A stretch of DNA of 64,000 bases. Origin: Giardia intestinalis (Eukaryota). The DNA lies in NCBI GenBank assembly GCA_000002435.2, contig CM018791.1, one strand, 5' to 3'. Shown here in pieces: positions 11,126 through 33,531 of this stretch (the stretch's first letter is position 1; each line of letters starts with the position of its first letter). A program made the position numbers and the translations under genes. The notes beneath the pieces were generated by a model. That model saw only the letters and a list, made by a program, of their open reading frames with translations. It had not been told where the DNA came from and ran no database searches.

Positions 11126-11779
11126 ATGCAATTTGATGATAAGCTTGGCTGCCAGCTTCTTCACGACGCATTAAAATACAAGGATAGTATACAGAGAACA
11201 ATTACAAGAAGCAGTATTCGCAGCCGAACACGGCTCAAACAACTATCTGATGTCACAAAGAGACAGATCAAAGAAATCGAGCTCATGCGTAGAGACACTC
11301 ACCCCTTTTTTCTTCCTACTGATTATGACAAGGATGGGCGCATAAAAGACTGCATGAGTGTTGTAGAGCGTACAACCCCTGGAGTTCGATTTTCTGCGTT
11401 TGAGAAGCATGCCGGATATCTCTCCCAGCTTAGTGAGCCGGGTTATGCTATAGATGATACCGACAGAGTCAGCAACAGAAATCTCCCCGCAGAGACGTAT
11501 ACTCAAGCCATGCGGATGGGGCAGCTTTCCACGTTAGATGAAGATGTGATAATCTCAAAGAGCTCGCTCCCTTTTCTCTCTGTAGCAGCAGATTCAGGGT
11601 ACATACTTACCCGTCGCATATGTAGCCCTCTGATTTCTGTTCGGGACATCCGTCTAACCTCGTCTACCCAAGACTCTGACATATGGAAGCACAAATCAGT
11701 TAGTTGTGCAACTACAACTACAACTTCACCCTCACAATGTGCAGCCAGGCTTTCTGCATTAGATGTTATCCTCTATTAG
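11126..11779 (+). CDS. Hypothetical protein (217 aa).
   Basis: ATG preceded by an AT-rich initiator (ttagttaaaatATG). Balanced amino-acid composition. No motif recognised. Confidence 0.5.
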   Translation: MQFDDKLGCQLLHDALKYKDSIQRTITRSSIRSRTRLKQLSDVTKRQIKEIELMRRDTHPFFLPTDYDKDGRIKDCMSVVERTTPGVRFSAFEKHAGYLSQLSEPGYAIDDTDRVSNRNLPAETYTQAMRMGQLSTLDEDVIISKSSLPFLSVAADSGYILTRRICSPLISVRDIRLTSSTQDSDIWKHKSVSCATTTTTSPSQCAARLSALDVILY

Positions 11780-28972: not shown

Positions 28973-29026
28973 TTTAAATTATTTGTCTTTTTATTGAATC
29001 AGGGAAGTACTTGCAGAATGTACAGG

Positions 29027-29419
29027 TCAAAGAGATCTATTGTCGAGCTGGCAGCCTCGTTTCTTGCTGGCGTAGGTGCAGTTTTTCTAGTCCAGGCAGT
29101 CCACGCCAAATGCTGCACTGTACGCTGTCCTCTCTGTACTCTTTTTGGATCCAGTACGCAGGAGCAAAAGCCGACTTCTGGCGGCTGTTCTGGATCAAGC
29201 GATCCTAGCCAACGATGTGCAAACTGCACCTGTTGGAAGTCTCGGGTGGGCGACAAGTCAGCTGAGGCCAACTCTCAGCCGGGAATTTCCGTCCAGAAAT
29301 CTGGTCGAGTTGCTCTGAATCTTGCGGCGATAAATCCAGAGCAGGAGCTCCGTCAGGTTGGCGACGACTCTGCTTCGGGAGATGACGCGACTTATATGAT
29401 CTCTCAACCTCCTCTTTAA
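29027..29419 (+). CDS. Candidate small secreted/membrane ORF (131 aa). Weak support.
   Basis: ATG followed by a hydrophobic segment (SIVELAASFLAGVGAVFLVQAVHA) and Cys-rich residues. Lies in the 443-bp gap between the syntaxin start and the RPE 3' end. Could be non-coding. Confidence 0.2.
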   Translation, partial: SKRSIVELAASFLAGVGAVFLVQAVHAKCCTVRCPLCTLFGSSTQEQKPTSGGCSGSSDPSQRCANCTCWKSRVGDKSAEANSQPGISVQKSGRVALNLAAINPEQELRQVGDDSASGDDATYMISQPPL

Positions 29420-30141
29420 GCACGTTTACATGACACCATATGTTTTCTGAGTAGGGTGATGGGAATGCTTCTATCGGACGCCCCGAATATGTACGAGCCT
29501 GCCACGAAGGCGTCTATTCCACAGGAGCATGCATGATCTATCGTCGCATCCGAAATTCCTCCATCCACTTCAATCAGTAAATCGCTTCTCCTCTTTTTCA
29601 GCTGAATCGCCTTCTCAGCGGCCTCTGGGATATACTTCTGACCACCAAAGCCAGGCTCTACAGTCATAAGAAGAACCAGATCTAAGGCCTTTAACAAGTC
29701 GTCGCCAATGACGGAAGCTGGTGTCTTTGGCTTGATGGAAAGGCCTGCCTTGAGTCCGTGTGCCTTTATTTCCTCGACCAATCGAGCGCATGCCGTATTG
29801 ATAGCTTCCAGATCTTCGTCTGGATCTATGTATGGTGAGTTCCTACCAGAACGCACGGAGGGAGCCTCAATATGAAAGGTAAAGGTGGAAGCACCTGCCT
29901 TAGCGGTCGATGAAATCCAAAACCCTGGGTCATTGGTCATAAAGTGACAGTCTAAAAATGCGTTGGGGACGGCAGCATGTAGGGCACTGATGACGGGCGG
30001 GCCAATGGTCAGATTGGGGACAAAGTTTCCATCCATTACATCCACATGTAACCAGTCTGCTCCACAGTTGAGGACCTCCTGAGCCTCCTGTCCAAGCTTG
30101 GAAAAATCAGCTGAGAGGATTGATGGCGCAATCAACGTCAT
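29416..30141 (-). CDS. RPE: Ribulose-phosphate 3-epimerase.
   Basis: MTLIAPSILSADFSKLGQE…DWLHVDVMDGNFVPNLTIGPPV…MTVEPGFGGQKYI…VDGGI are hallmark RPE motifs. Confidence 0.9.
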   Translation of the reverse strand: MTLIAPSILSADFSKLGQEAQEVLNCGADWLHVDVMDGNFVPNLTIGPPVISALHAAVPNAFLDCHFMTNDPGFWISSTAKAGASTFTFHIEAPSVRSGRNSPYIDPDEDLEAINTACARLVEEIKAHGLKAGLSIKPKTPASVIGDDLLKALDLVLLMTVEPGFGGQKYIPEAAEKAIQLKKRRSDLLIEVDGGISDATIDHACSCGIDAFVAGSYIFGASDRSIPITLLRKHMVSCKRA

Positions 30142-30327
30142 TTGTTTTTAGCTATGCGAAGAAAGATTTAGGCTGCTGTGTAAATATTCACTCTAGTTAT
30201 TTTTCTTATGCACTGCCTACACCTTAGCTTTACTATGGCTGTTTACTGTGACTGTTTACTTAAGGCACGGTATACTCTGCAAGGAACTCCGGTGGTGCAG
30301 GATTTGCTAAATAAGATTCATCAGGGG

Positions 30328-30723
30328 CTACAAGCCACTGCAATCACGAATCTCTGCATCCTTACTCGAGACTCGAGGGTTGCGCCCCGGCTGGGAAGCG
30401 CGGGCCTCACGGCGGGCGGCGGGCTGCTCTGCGCACGCTCCCCTGCGGAGGCGGTGGCCGGGGGCGCACCGGTGGCAGTACTCCGGGACGGCGCAGACCG
30501 CGCAGTGCTCGACGGCGCAGGGCCCGGGGGTGCACGCCCGCCCGCCGTCTGCAGGGACCAGCTCGCCCTGGCAGCGCAGGCAGGCGGCGCCCGCGCACCG
30601 CTCGCAGCCGGGGACCGTCACCCCGCAGGGCAGGGCCGCGAGGAGGCGGAGGAGGCGTCCGGGCATCGGCGTGTTTTCGGCCAAAAATCTGGCGATGTCT
30701 ACGGCGCCCGCGACCTGGGACAC
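30328..30723 (-). CDS. Small GC-rich ORF encoding a Cys-rich (CXXC/furin-like) peptide with a possible signal peptide (start may be the second Met, MPGRLLRLLAALP). Coding frame uncertain.
   Basis: Lies in a roughly 78% GC island. Of the six frames, this one has GC1>GC2 with GC3 about 90% and a protein-like Cys pattern (CERCAGAACLRCQ…CAVEHCAVCAVPEYCHRCAPGH). The competing open frames encode Arg/Pro/Gly-rich strings. Confidence 0.3.
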   Translation of the reverse strand: MSQVAGAVDIARFLAENTPMPGRLLRLLAALPCGVTVPGCERCAGAACLRCQGELVPADGGRACTPGPCAVEHCAVCAVPEYCHRCAPGHRLRRGACAEQPAARREARASQPGRNPRVSSKDAEIRDCSGL

Positions 30724-31003
30724 GCACTGGGCGCGCCACTGGCGCCTGGCCTGGGACTACGTCCTCGGGGCCGCCGTGGCAGGGCTCCTCCTGGCGTGCG
30801 GGGCGCGCTCCCCGGGCCAGGCAGGGGACCCGGACCCCCGGCACAGCCCCCGGCGCCGCAGCTCCTTCGAGGGCCGGGCTCCCCCGCGCCGGCGGGAGAC
30901 GAGCGACCCCGACGTCGACTGCTCCGACTAGCCCGGGGCACGCGAATCCCATAAAGTGAACGTCAACGCTTTTCCGGCACAATCACCGGGTAGTTTATTG
31001 ATG

Positions 31004-31017
31004 GAGAAAAATAAATG
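31004..31017 (+). promoter_or_regulatory. AT-rich initiator GAGAAAAATAAATG (ATG included). Identical 14-mer at 32673-32686 and 49834-49847.
   Basis: Exact 14-nt identity directly at the start codon of three Cys-rich membrane-protein genes. Confidence 0.4.
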
Positions 31018-31761
31018 TGCTGCTGCGACGAGGACATCATCGCCCTCATCTGCGTGGGCATCCCGATGATCGCGTACGCGGTGGTAGTCGGCTTTCCGGG
31101 GAGAGACCCCAGCAAGGTTGGAGCGGCATTGAAAGAGTGTCTCAGTAACAAAAATGGTAAGAATCTCCTAGCCTGCATCAGTGAGAAGGGGGATAACTAC
31201 GGCGGCCTCTTCCTCTTCATAATGATTGTGGCCGTGATCTGCATCATCTACAGCATCGTCGTCCAGATCCTCAAGTGCGTCCTCTGCTGCTGCAGCTGCT
31301 GCTGCTGCGGGTGCTGCGGGTGCCTCGACTGCTTCCTCAAGTACGCGTTCCGCATCGGGGTCGGAGTCGGGTACCCCTCGCTCGCGGACTTCCTCACGTA
31401 CCTGATCACCTCCGTGCTGGCGAAGAACGGGAACGGTGGTAATACGTCGTTCAGCAACGCCGTGGGCGGCTACAGCGGGCTGTCGATGGTCTCCCTCGCG
31501 GCCGGCTGGGCCTTCACCGTGGTCATCGGCTCGTTCTTCATCCACAAGGACAGCTGCGGGCTGAAGTTCCTCGGGCTCATTCTGGGCTGCATCGTCGCCT
31601 TCGTCGTCATCGCGGCCATCGTCCCGGCGGGCCCCCGCGGCCTCCTTGAGGGCCCCTCCAACAAGTGGGCGGGCGTGGTCCTCGGGCTCGTCGACGTGGT
31701 AGTCTTCACAGCCATGTACGCCGCGGCGCTCTGCTGCCTGGGCGGCGGGTGCTGCAAGTAA
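31015..31761 (+). CDS. Polycysteine multi-pass membrane protein, paralog 1 (248 aa; MCCC N-terminus, CCCSCCCCGCCGC cluster after TM2, CCLGGGCCK C-terminus).
   Basis: Four to six predicted TM helices. Juxtamembrane Cys runs. Very GC3-rich codon usage. Initiator gagaaaaataaATG. Confidence 0.75.
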   Translation: MCCCDEDIIALICVGIPMIAYAVVVGFPGRDPSKVGAALKECLSNKNGKNLLACISEKGDNYGGLFLFIMIVAVICIIYSIVVQILKCVLCCCSCCCCGCCGCLDCFLKYAFRIGVGVGYPSLADFLTYLITSVLAKNGNGGNTSFSNAVGGYSGLSMVSLAAGWAFTVVIGSFFIHKDSCGLKFLGLILGCIVAFVVIAAIVPAGPRGLLEGPSNKWAGVVLGLVDVVVFTAMYAAALCCLGGGCCK

Positions 31762-31773
31762 ACGGCGCCCGGC

Positions 31774-32247
31774 CTACTGCTCGGTCTCCTCGTAGATCGT
31801 GATCTCGGAGCAGTCTGCGCACCGGAGCCCGCTGTCCTCCGAGACGGGGACCTGGAAGATCACCCTGCAGAAGCGCATGAACCGGTTTGCGTACGCGTCG
31901 CTCGGGACCGCGGAGATCCCGTCCTTGTCTGCGCACAGCCCCTTCGCCCTGCGCTCGACGTGCTTGATGCTCCTGAACTCGGTGAGGAAGTCGACGACGC
32001 CCATGTGGAGGACCCGGTAGTAGAGGGCCGACCCCCGCAGCGTGGGCCCCAGGGCGCAGGCGGGGGAGAACGCGTAGAGCCCGCCCTCCTCGCTGTGGAA
32101 GATGTCGCTGCTCTGGATGGCCGCCTCGAACGTGAAGCGGCGCCGGAAGACCTCCCGGAGGTACTCGTCGGGGGGCAGCGCGGCGAGGAACGCGGACGTC
32201 CCCCGGCTCCCCCCGGCCGCGATGCTGTGGCCCACCGGGGGCAGCAT
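31774..32247 (-). CDS. Hypothetical protein (157 aa) with extremely high GC3 codon usage.
   Basis: Of the frames in this GC-rich stretch, only this one gives a compositionally normal protein (…YLREVFRRRFTFEAAIQSSDIFHSEEGGLYAF…). GC3 is about 95%. The alternatives are Arg/Pro/Gly junk. Confidence 0.5.
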   Translation of the reverse strand: MLPPVGHSIAAGGSRGTSAFLAALPPDEYLREVFRRRFTFEAAIQSSDIFHSEEGGLYAFSPACALGPTLRGSALYYRVLHMGVVDFLTEFRSIKHVERRAKGLCADKDGISAVPSDAYANRFMRFCRVIFQVPVSEDSGLRCADCSEITIYEETEQ

Positions 32248-32683
32248 GTCCGAGACGTCCCGCGTGCTGAGGATGACTCTTCACCGATATTCCTTAGTAA
32301 GCTTAGTCAATGGTAAGTATAACGTCTTGTAGACGACGAGTGACAGTAATTCACCGTGTTTTCCCAGGGCCTCTAAACTAAGAGAGCCTGACAACAAAGT
32401 GCTCAAATTGCGGTTCAAGGCACGCATTATGAAGACATTGGCATCGCCGCTTTTTTAGGTTTCTGCGCCGGCCTACTAGGCAGTCAAAATAGTACAAAAA
32501 TTTCCAAATTGATGTTTAAACAATTTTAGATGTGCAAAGACTTTCATCGACCTCTTACTGGTTGACAGCGAATAGCTGTTTACACACAGAAATTCCGTTA
32601 TTGGTTTTCTTCGATAAATAAATTTCAAGAATCTTCGATTGCGCTGAATAAGTCAATGTTCCTTCAATCGTTGAGAAAAATAA

Positions 32684-33478
32684 ATGTGCTGTGATGAGGA
32701 TGTCATTGCCCTCATCTGCGTGGGTGTCCCGATGGTTGTGTATGCCCTGATTGTAGGGTTCCAGAAAAGGAACCCAGCTGCTGTTGGTCAAGCGCTAAAG
32801 ACTTGTTTTAATGACAACAAATCTATATGGAAAAAAGACCCTTTGAAGTGCCTTGCTGGTACTAAATATGGTGGCTTGTTTCTCTTCATAATGATCGTGG
32901 CCGTGATCTGCATCATTTACGGGATTGTTGTTCAGATACTCAAATGTATTTTGTGTTGCTGTAATTGTTGTTGCGGGTGCTGCGGGTGCCTCGACTGCTT
33001 CCTCAAGTACGCGTTCCGCATCGGGGTCGGCGTCGGGTACCCCTCTTTGATGGATTTTCTTACATATTTGATCTCTGCTTCGGTAGCGAAGAATAACAAC
33101 TGGGTAGACAACAATCTCTCCAAGAGAGGCGCATTCAACAATGCAGTGGGAGGTTACAGTGGCATATCAATGCTATCTCTTGCGGCCGGTTGGGTCTTCA
33201 CTGTGGTCATCGGCTCATTTTTCATCCAGAAAGACAGCTGCGGCCTGAAATTCTTAGGGCTTATTCTAGGTTGTATCGTCGCCTTCGTCATTATCGCAGC
33301 TGTTGTCCCAGCAGATCCTCGTAATTTATACTCTGGTAAAGCCTTTAACAATCAGCTTTTCATTAGCAAGGAAGCCAGGTGGGGCGGCGTTCTCCTCGGC
33401 TTCATCAATGTAGGAGTTTTCACAGGCATGTATGCTGCTGCCCTGTGTTGCTTGAACGGCTGCTGCTGTTGCAAGTAA
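32684..33478 (+). CDS. Polycysteine multi-pass membrane protein, paralog 2 (264 aa).
   Basis: Roughly three-quarters amino-acid identity with 31015..31761 by eye. Same MCC…, CCCNCCCGCCGC and …CCLNGCCCCK features. Ordinary AT-moderate codon usage, except for short stretches identical to paralog 1. Confidence 0.8.
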   Translation: MCCDEDVIALICVGVPMVVYALIVGFQKRNPAAVGQALKTCFNDNKSIWKKDPLKCLAGTKYGGLFLFIMIVAVICIIYGIVVQILKCILCCCNCCCGCCGCLDCFLKYAFRIGVGVGYPSLMDFLTYLISASVAKNNNWVDNNLSKRGAFNNAVGGYSGISMLSLAAGWVFTVVIGSFFIQKDSCGLKFLGLILGCIVAFVIIAAVVPADPRNLYSGKAFNNQLFISKEARWGGVLLGFINVGVFTGMYAAALCCLNGCCCCK

Positions 33479-33531
33479 ATAGTGGTGTCCCCGTGCAGAC
33501 TTTTCTTTTTGACAAAAATCACGGTTGCTAG

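Follow-up and report, generated by a model that had tools for sequence, protein, structure and literature searches.

The 64,000-nucleotide window analysed here, a stretch of Giardia intestinalis contig CM018791.1 (GenBank assembly GCA_000002435.2), carries two paralogous open reading frames (ORFs) on the plus strand, copy 1 (31015–31761; 248 amino acids) and copy 2 (32684–33478; 264 amino acids), both of which encode six-helix cysteine-string membrane proteins. Their positions and common strand agree with an earlier note, made from the DNA letters alone, which had put the identity of the two proteins at about 75%, a fair figure as 180 of 244 residues (74%) were identical in a global alignment. 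The codon alignment gave 71% identity at the nucleotide level, and BLASTP a local identity of 66%, lower than the global value because of loop gaps. The contrast in G+C content at third codon positions (GC3) that the note had pointed out was reproduced as well, being 0.89 in copy 1 and 0.56 in copy 2. Each protein contains 25 cysteines, ~10% of its residues, and the runs described before were all found, namely the N-terminal MCCC / MCC, the string CCCSCCCCGCCGC / CCCNCCCGCCGC following the second transmembrane helix (TM2), and the C-terminal CCLGGGCCK / CCLNGCCCCK (copy 1 / copy 2).

The product of copy 1 matches exactly the Giardia duodenalis WB protein KAE8302978.1 / XP_001709972.1 / A8B2H2, and that of copy 2 matches exactly KAE8302979.1 / XP_001709974.1 / A8B2H5, also of WB; the sole annotation of both in GenBank and UniProt is 'Transmembrane domain-containing protein'. 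A literature search found no paper citing these accessions or the locus tags of the paralogs, and nothing relevant was retrieved on Giardia with 'cysteine string / polycysteine' or on a Giardia palmitoylome. The family had been called undescribed, which holds in the sense of uncharacterised; it is not unknown, since the genes are public and annotated by a generic name.

Both genes retain the same short flanking elements. The A-rich initiator GAGAAAAATAA abuts the ATG of copy 1 (31004–31014, +) and, in the same form, that of copy 2 (32673–32683, +), and the hexamer AGTAAA spans each stop codon (AAG TAA A; 31757–31762 and 33474–33479, both +), which we take to be a match to the Giardia polyadenylation signal. 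The ratio of nonsynonymous to synonymous substitution rates (dN/dS) was 0.05–0.2 in the protein core for every ortholog and paralog pair, while the loops showed dN of 0.3–0.67 and dN/dS of 0.3–0.9 in pairs between assemblages A and B and in paralog pairs. The two copies are therefore intact, functional genes with fast-evolving loops.

Short-tract exchange between the copies

Within the diverged coding sequences lie blocks of near identity, at exactly the positions reported before. The main tract, 31306–31379 (+) in copy 1 and 32972–33045 (+) in copy 2, is identical at 73 of 74 nucleotides, comprising an exact run of 59 nt (31306–31364 = 32972–33030), one mismatch and 14 further nucleotides up to 31379/33045. 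Its codons specify C-G-C-C-G-C-L-D-C-F-L-K-Y-A-F-R-I-G-V-G-V-G-Y-P, and in copy 2 it forms an island of GC-ending codons in a gene with GC3 of about 0.5. A second block, in TM2, is identical at 34 of 35 nucleotides (31213–31247 and 32882–32916, both +), and at the 5′ ends 19 nucleotides are shared exactly (31004–31022 = 32673–32691), namely GAGAAAAATAA followed by ATGTGCTG. An imperfect inverted repeat, GGGTGCCTCGAC ... GTCGGGTACCC, was also observed at 31317–31379 and 32983–33045, folding as a hairpin in both copies.

Chance identity of the shared blocks was rejected by permutation tests. None of 20,000 shuffles of the mismatch positions reached the 59-nt run (p<5e-5), and when only synonymous choices at identical degenerate amino acids were considered, the run of 19 identical codons had p = 8e-5 and the 23 identical codons in a span of 25 p = 1.7e-4, in conflict with the possibility, raised by the earlier note itself, that the blocks are no more similar than their flanks.

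Ten genes, drawn from assemblages A1, A2 and B, were then aligned by codon and compared by segment. In the 3′ segment the paralogs were separated by a distance of 0.31 and the A–B orthologs by 0.09–0.13, and because the paralog distance exceeds the ortholog distance, the duplication that gave rise to copies 1 and 2 is older than the A/B split. Over the block (codon columns 109–132) the order was reversed, with 0.023 between paralogs within A versus 0.069–0.104 between A–B orthologs. Assemblage A showed this reversal clearly; B gave a weaker signal (0.097 in columns 109–132) and a shifted tract, copy 2 of B being copy-1-like over approximately columns 94–123, so with bounds that differ from those in A. 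Lineage-specific synonymous states were found across the paralogs as well, such as, at column 124, CGC throughout the A copies and CGG throughout the B copies, and, at column 128, GGG in all four copies of isolate DH (assemblage A2).

Comparison between isolates located further exchanges. Copy 2 of WB and copy 2 of DH differ at 37 codons, which are clustered. In columns 61–77 the differences match another DH paralog, P0005; in columns 208–210 they match copy-1-type genes, and since the state of WB copy 2 is the one retained there in the B ortholog, it is the DH allele that was converted; in columns 182–186 they match the copy-1 type, as does the B ortholog at the two synonymous sites, leaving the direction ambiguous. 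At least some exchange, as read from these alleles, has gone on since the A1/A2 split. At column 85 in TM2, WB copy 1 differs from the copy-1-type genes of DH and GS and reads GTG (Val) as copy 2 does, a state suggestive of transfer from copy 2 to copy 1.

A longer tract was met in P0003, a B allele on an ENA metagenome scaffold (L006 462–1253) that lies at the syntenic copy-2 locus and has copy-2 upstream sequence; the first ~370 nt of its coding sequence match a copy-1-type gene at 97–100% identity, while its 3′ part is copy 2. We read it as a long, bounded tract, an assembly chimera being less likely. Another assemblage-B-like allele at the copy-2 locus, P0004, carries a copy-1-type loop 2. 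Taken together, copies 1 and 2 and one or two copy-1-type genes of the same chromosome are shown to swap tracts of ~10–75 nt, and occasionally of ~370 nt, in both directions.

Selection acting directly at the nucleotide level, through an mRNA hairpin or strict codon choice, could in principle have kept the blocks alike with no gene conversion. In keeping with this, the ten genes are almost the same over the block, orthologs included, and it holds a predicted hairpin (GGGUGCCUCGAC...GUCGGGUACCC) with z = -2.6 in its copy 1 surroundings. In those of copy 2, however, the hairpin reaches only z = -0.6, and constraint would account neither for the lineage-specific synonymous states common to the paralog types at columns 124 and 128, nor for tract bounds that differ between A and B, nor for WB/DH differences beyond the block that are likewise clustered and match other paralogs, nor for the coincidence of the tract with a GC3 island in copy 2. 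We regard constraint in place of conversion as quite improbable. Recurrent short-tract gene conversion, as the earlier note had proposed, is well supported on the sequence evidence, with permutation statistics, segment-wise phylogenetic incongruence and the between-isolate comparison all pointing to it.

Duplicated GC-rich module and codon usage

Copy 1 lies in a duplicated module of 1.26 kb (31013–32275, +), which consists of a copy-1-type gene and the convergent 3′ end of a PIP5K gene and is 93% identical (blastn) to positions 9999–11273 of DH locus L003, where a third paralog, P0005, stands beside a full-length PIP5K. In the window the PIP5K piece is a 157-amino-acid ORF on the minus strand (31774–32247; GC3 0.98) that equals the C-terminal third of the 506-amino-acid PIP5K and matches the Pfam PIP5K profile (E 3e-12) at positions 234–286 of 288 only; homology reaches to ~32280, and a 502-nt piece shows 99.6% identity with the full gene at its 3′ end. 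Because the module and the PIP5K piece are 93% and 99.6% identical, respectively, to the P0005/PIP5K locus of DH, the minus-strand ORF is the relic of a segmental duplication of which copy 1 is part. The stop codons of copy 1 and of the relic are 12 nt apart.

The gene order in DH on L003 is copy 2, the 157-amino-acid PIP5K fragment, a copy-1-type gene, a GC-rich stretch, P0005 (252 amino acids) and the convergent full PIP5K (506 amino acids), and on L004 a copy-1-type gene adjoins ribulose-phosphate 3-epimerase, followed by a variant surface protein (VSP) gene. The position of copy 2 is syntenic in assemblages A1, A2 and B with conserved downstream neighbours (L001, L003, L006), namely a 330-amino-acid protein, a 222-amino-acid SNARE-like protein, a kinase, OTCase and SMC. 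Positions 29000–31762 of the window correspond to L004 7989–10748, and 30422–34000 to L003 9377–5813 in reverse (DH contig AHGT01000002.1). The WB and DH gene orders differ as expected for an inversion of ~75 kb with breakpoints in inverted copy-1-type repeats; an actual inversion through recombination of the repeats could be the cause, or the difference could be a DH assembly error across the 1.3-kb repeat.

Its place in a duplicated block, with a truncated PIP5K relic adjoining, might mark copy 1 as a young pseudogene, a non-functional by-product of the segmental duplication. This proposal was rejected as scarcely credible: the ORF is intact in both WB and DH, core dN/dS against the B orthologs is as low as 0.07–0.15, the initiator and the poly(A) signal are conserved, and the copy-1 type is the commonest form across isolates.

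The GC-rich zone extends from ~30400 to 32300, where it ends abruptly, and covers an upstream stretch, copy 1 and the PIP5K relic. The upstream stretch (30401–30900), between ribulose-phosphate 3-epimerase and copy 1, is 70–85% GC and belongs to a repeat that also stands ahead of copy-1-type genes in DH; a CXXC-like frame runs through it on the minus strand (30328–30723), and the GC-rich ORFs of CXXC-like character on this side of copy 1 gave no Pfam match. The stretch could be the decayed remnant of a VSP or HCMP gene, carried with the repeat.

In the intact PIP5K of DH, GC3 is 0.44–0.58 over the first 750 nt, 0.72–0.76 over the next 300 nt and 0.92–1.00 over the last 450 nt, which correspond approximately to the duplicated stretch of 501 nt, and the neighbouring single-copy genes have GC3 of 0.50–0.60. 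In copy 2, the 75-nt segment with the main tract has GC3 of 0.88, versus 0.32–0.64 elsewhere in the gene. The divergent codon usage of the earlier note stands as a contrast but not as a property of the genes: it belongs to the duplicated GC-rich module as a whole, i.e. the copy-1-type gene together with its GC-rich upstream stretch and the last 501 nt of PIP5K.

GC-biased gene conversion would best explain this pattern, with strong circumstantial support. Under such a process, frequent conversion among the module copies would drive GC3 to 0.9–1.0, while copy 2 would stay at the local baseline save inside its converted tract. The other explanation considered was translational selection for preferred codons in a highly expressed gene. 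Highly expressed genes of Giardia generally favour codons that end in G or C, and the copy-1-type genes of B are also raised in GC3 (0.64–0.82). The enrichment, however, extends into the truncated PIP5K and into an upstream stretch with no recognised gene, and the peak in the intact PIP5K is confined to the last 450 nt, where selection for expression would cover the whole gene; because the GC3 step falls mid-gene in PIP5K, this explanation is disfavoured and we hold it to be improbable.

As a process, concerted evolution by ectopic, GC-biased conversion is already known, having been described in many eukaryotic multigene families (PMC5635611). The present pair resembles such families in its short mosaic tracts, in the greater similarity of paralogs than of orthologs inside the tracts and in its raised GC3, and differs from the described cases in that Giardia has no known sexual cycle and that a GC3 step falls within a single-copy gene, PIP5K. 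Our literature search retrieved no paper reporting GC-biased conversion in Giardia.

Protein architecture and cysteine placement

An AlphaFold2 (AF2) model of copy 1 built with a diverse alignment reached a pLDDT of 83.2 and a pTM of 0.81 and contains six predicted helices (residues 6–26, 60–91, 102–137, 154–176, 181–205 and 214–241), in agreement with the hydropathy profile. The 4–6 transmembrane helices predicted in the earlier note are thus corrected to six, its multi-pass character being retained.

Nearly all of the ~25 cysteines fall on one side of the predicted fold. Among 18 members, cysteines make up 24.4% of the residues in the four alternate segments on one face versus 3.0% in the three loops on the other. 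The cysteine-rich segments are the N-terminus (MCCC), the link between helices 2 and 3, the link between helices 4 and 5 (DSC(G/C)) and the C-terminus (CC...CCK); the string directly after helix 2 holds 9–10 cysteines, up to 10 in 17 residues. The three loops of the other face, which would point outward in the model proposed below, have 0–2 cysteines and are hypervariable in sequence and length and rich in indels, with the exception of a conserved cysteine pair in loop 1, where 16 of the 18 members have exactly two. Both the length and the position of the cysteine string vary across the superfamily, as in the G. muris protein GMRT_12676, with its run of nine cysteines at the C-terminus. R30 (in GFxPR after helix 1), D125 (helix 3) and W165 (helix 4) are invariant across the superfamily, and G191 is nearly so.

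No Pfam family could be assigned: copies 1 and 2 and 18 diverse relatives gave only single sub-threshold DUF matches, each in one member. A sequence-profile search of the PDB returned one match, a designed coiled coil (E 3e-4), which was judged spurious. The fold is hence without a detectable relative among solved structures or Pfam families, and neither a profile match to a known family nor a lack of membrane helices, the two findings that would have spoken against the original description, was encountered.

A Giardia family and its distribution

An exhaustive search of 1.84 billion representative sequences with a hidden Markov model (HMM) profile of the family returned 16 proteins, with E-values by hmmsearch of 1e-102 to 4e-6 among family members and near full-length alignments. 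Every named match came from G. duodenalis or G. muris, in line with the Giardia-specific family suspected before, and the same search gave no named match from another diplomonad; the remaining matches came from read-archive assemblies. A second, word-indexed protein search was dominated by poly-cysteine words and added two proteins.

Orthologs are present in A2, B, E and G. muris, where TNJ26955.1 is the cysteine-string ortholog. The wider family includes GL50803_0012830 (269 amino acids) and GL50581_921 (343 amino acids) in G. duodenalis, and GMRT_12676 (364 amino acids, with the nine-cysteine run in its C-terminal tail) and GMRT_12506 in G. muris. WB has at least three copies and DH four, on one contig. 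The third WB copy (249 amino acids; XP_001710016.1 / A8B2P4) lies ~39 genes away on the same chromosome, beyond the window, and differs from copy 1 solely in loop 2; copies 1 and 2 are accordingly a tandem pair as neighbours, as first described, but not the whole of the family, which numbers at least 3–4 copies per genome plus more distant Giardia paralogs.

Two further members were seen on Logan contigs, P0018, 64% identical to copy 1 (L007 430–1161, ERR3333381; contig of 37% GC), and the more distant P0033 (L008 8001–8738, SRR31929897; contig of 53% GC), which adjoins a tubulin-tyrosine-ligase gene; both are probably from other Giardia species or close relatives. An assemblage B copy-1-type member, P0011 (L005 8001–8744, GS contig AHHH01000127.1), is named 'Cell division protein kinase 2' in GenBank and UniProt, and because a kinase domain is absent from the sequence, the name looks like an annotation error. 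In DH and GS, VSP genes were also observed immediately downstream of copy-1-type genes (L002, L004, L005), an arrangement suggesting that the family shares the rearrangement-prone neighbourhoods of those genes.

Relation to known membrane protein families

In overall build the family is like the tetraspanins, claudin/PMP22, MARVEL and CD20/MS4A proteins, which are all-helical, ~250 amino acids long, multigene and variable in their outward loops. It also has in common with these small palmitoylated scaffolds its cysteines next to the membrane, on the side presumed to be cytosolic, and the disulfide-type cysteine pair of an outward loop. Tetraspanins (PF00335), however, have four transmembrane helices versus six here, and their large second loop with its CCG is missing, CCG occurring only within the juxtamembrane string; the tetraspanin HMM, moreover, gave no Pfam match at E<=1. 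The 18 family members likewise gave no HMM match at E<=1 to claudin/PMP22, MARVEL, CD20/MS4A or CYSTM. Membership of the tetraspanins is ruled out by the helix count, the missing CCG loop and the lack of a match to their HMM.

With the VSPs and HCMPs the family shares its restriction to Giardia, its cysteine richness, its multiple copies and its place in rearrangement-prone regions. VSPs and HCMPs have a signal peptide, a large CXXC ectodomain and one transmembrane helix, and VSPs end in a CRGKA tail (PMC7000408), which is palmitoylated (PMC4109852). Copies 1 and 2, in contrast, start with MCC(C)DED, end with CCK and have six helices, with no signal peptide, CXXC ectodomain or CRGKA, and neither matched the Pfam VSP profile PF03302. 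VSP/HCMP membership is ruled out on these grounds, so that the exclusion of both tetraspanins and VSP/HCMP in the earlier note is upheld.

The closest likeness of the string itself is to the cysteine-string protein (DNAJC5) and to the coronavirus spike tail, each with about ten or more cysteines densely packed by the membrane. Those runs are multiply S-palmitoylated. The surroundings differ, since the cysteine-string protein contains a J domain and lacks transmembrane helices and the spike has a single one, whereas the string of the family links helices 2 and 3 inside a six-helix protein; no sequence homology to either was detected, and the family members had no DnaJ match in Pfam.

Proposed function and orientation

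We favour, as moderately probable in its entirety, a reading of these genes as a Giardia-restricted set of six-helix proteins with a cysteine face, which act as a palmitoylated scaffold and whose copies exchange tracts by GC-biased conversion. The cysteine-rich face would be cytosolic and multiply S-palmitoylated by Giardia DHHC acyltransferases, so that the protein would serve, much as tetraspanins do, as a lipid-anchored scaffold of the plasma membrane or of the peripheral-vacuole membrane; the variable loops would point outward, with a disulfide holding loop 1. Nine DHHC enzymes occur in Giardia, in which membrane proteins are known to be palmitoylated and the palmitoyl-proteome has been stated to be undefined (PMC4109852). 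Heavy palmitoylation and surface location are here inferred, and the shifting length and position of the string fit juxtamembrane lipidation better than a fixed metal site.

Alternatively, the clusters might bind metal (Fe, Zn or Cu) or buffer redox in a metallothionein-like manner, with no palmitate. The cysteine content of ~10% would suit this, as would the paralog GL50581_921, which has an acidic insertion rich in Cys, His and Asp (CCEHDGCGNYDNNCDCCESFDCYDACSDGC) at the same position, and Giardia surface proteins with CXXC motifs have been reported to bind zinc. The clusters, however, always abut helix ends, they shift in length and location (after helix 2 or at the C-terminus) with no conserved spacing, and their 3–4 consecutive cysteines are unlike the CxC/CxxC patterns of metallothioneins and typical of acylated strings, as in the cysteine-string protein and the coronavirus spike tail. 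We consider metal binding unlikely.

An inverted topology, with the cysteine-rich segments outside or lumenal and the variable loops as cytosolic linkers, is similarly unlikely. The charge difference across helix 1, acidic before (MCCCDED) and basic after (GFPGRDPSK), fits an outward N-terminus, and Lys + Arg are slightly more frequent in the variable loops. In the opposite sense, the short loops HKDSCGLK and K..LKYAFR on the cysteine face are basic, the conserved cysteine pair in an otherwise cysteine-free variable loop usually marks a disulfide outside the cell, runs of consecutive cysteines are unable to build ordinary disulfide frameworks, and hypervariability with indels is expected of the exposed surface loops of a parasite.

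Several points weigh against the favoured reading of an outward-looped, palmitoylated scaffold shaped by GC-biased conversion. As to topology, Lys + Arg amount to 8.5% on the cysteine face versus 12.6% on the other and become about equal if boundary residues are reassigned, so giving no support for a cytosolic cysteine face, and the acidic N-terminus and the basic flank after helix 1, taken alone, favour N-out; the acylation, localisation, expression and orientation of the protein are all putative. As to the loops, a dN/dS of 0.3–0.9 falls short of demonstrating diversifying or positive selection. As to conversion, the alleles P0003 and P0004, being drawn from metagenome assemblies, could be chimeras, and the block is unusually conserved between A and B (0.07–0.10 versus ~0.23 locally, ~77% identity), so that nucleotide- or codon-level constraint on it may add to conversion; the GC bias is inferred from the pattern, the substitutions being unpolarised by an outgroup.

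A bolder proposal, to which we give little credence, is that the family forms a second, non-VSP class of exposed, heavily palmitoylated surface antigens of six helices and a fold unlike that of any solved structure, whose three outward loops are diversified as ectopic conversion shuffles short segments among 3–4 paralogs, with a GC-biased footprint. If this were true, recombination in a eukaryote supposed to be asexual could be measured locally, by the GC-biased footprint of mitotic or inter-nuclear conversion.

A further cysteine-rich repeat gene in the window

Elsewhere in the window, positions 5284–9496 consist of 35.1 tandem copies of a 120-nt unit (100% matches, no indels). On the plus strand the unit encodes a 40-amino-acid CXXC-type repeat within ORF 5167–9630 (1487 amino acids), a repeat protein presumably resembling the CRP136-type cysteine-rich repeat proteins of Giardia. 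A longer antisense ORF, 5110–9741, and its Pfam matches look like artefacts of the repeat.

Significance

New in this analysis are the wider family, its confidently modelled six-helix orphan fold, the one-sided placement of its cysteines, the module with the PIP5K relic, the dated bidirectional tracts and the GC3 step. The surface repertoire of Giardia is dominated by single-pass CXXC proteins, the VSPs and HCMPs, and here a lineage-restricted multi-pass family is set beside them, which is a candidate for the Giardia palmitoyl-proteome, for the organisation of membrane microdomains and possibly for host-exposed variation. The locus can also be seen as a natural recombination experiment, with tracts datable to after the A1/A2 split and an intragenic GC3 step in PIP5K approximately at the start of the duplication. 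It thereby provides testable evidence for ectopic GC-biased conversion as a force on codon usage in Giardia, where the biology of recombination is a matter of dispute, and a caution for codon-usage studies, in that differences between Giardia paralogs need not track expression.

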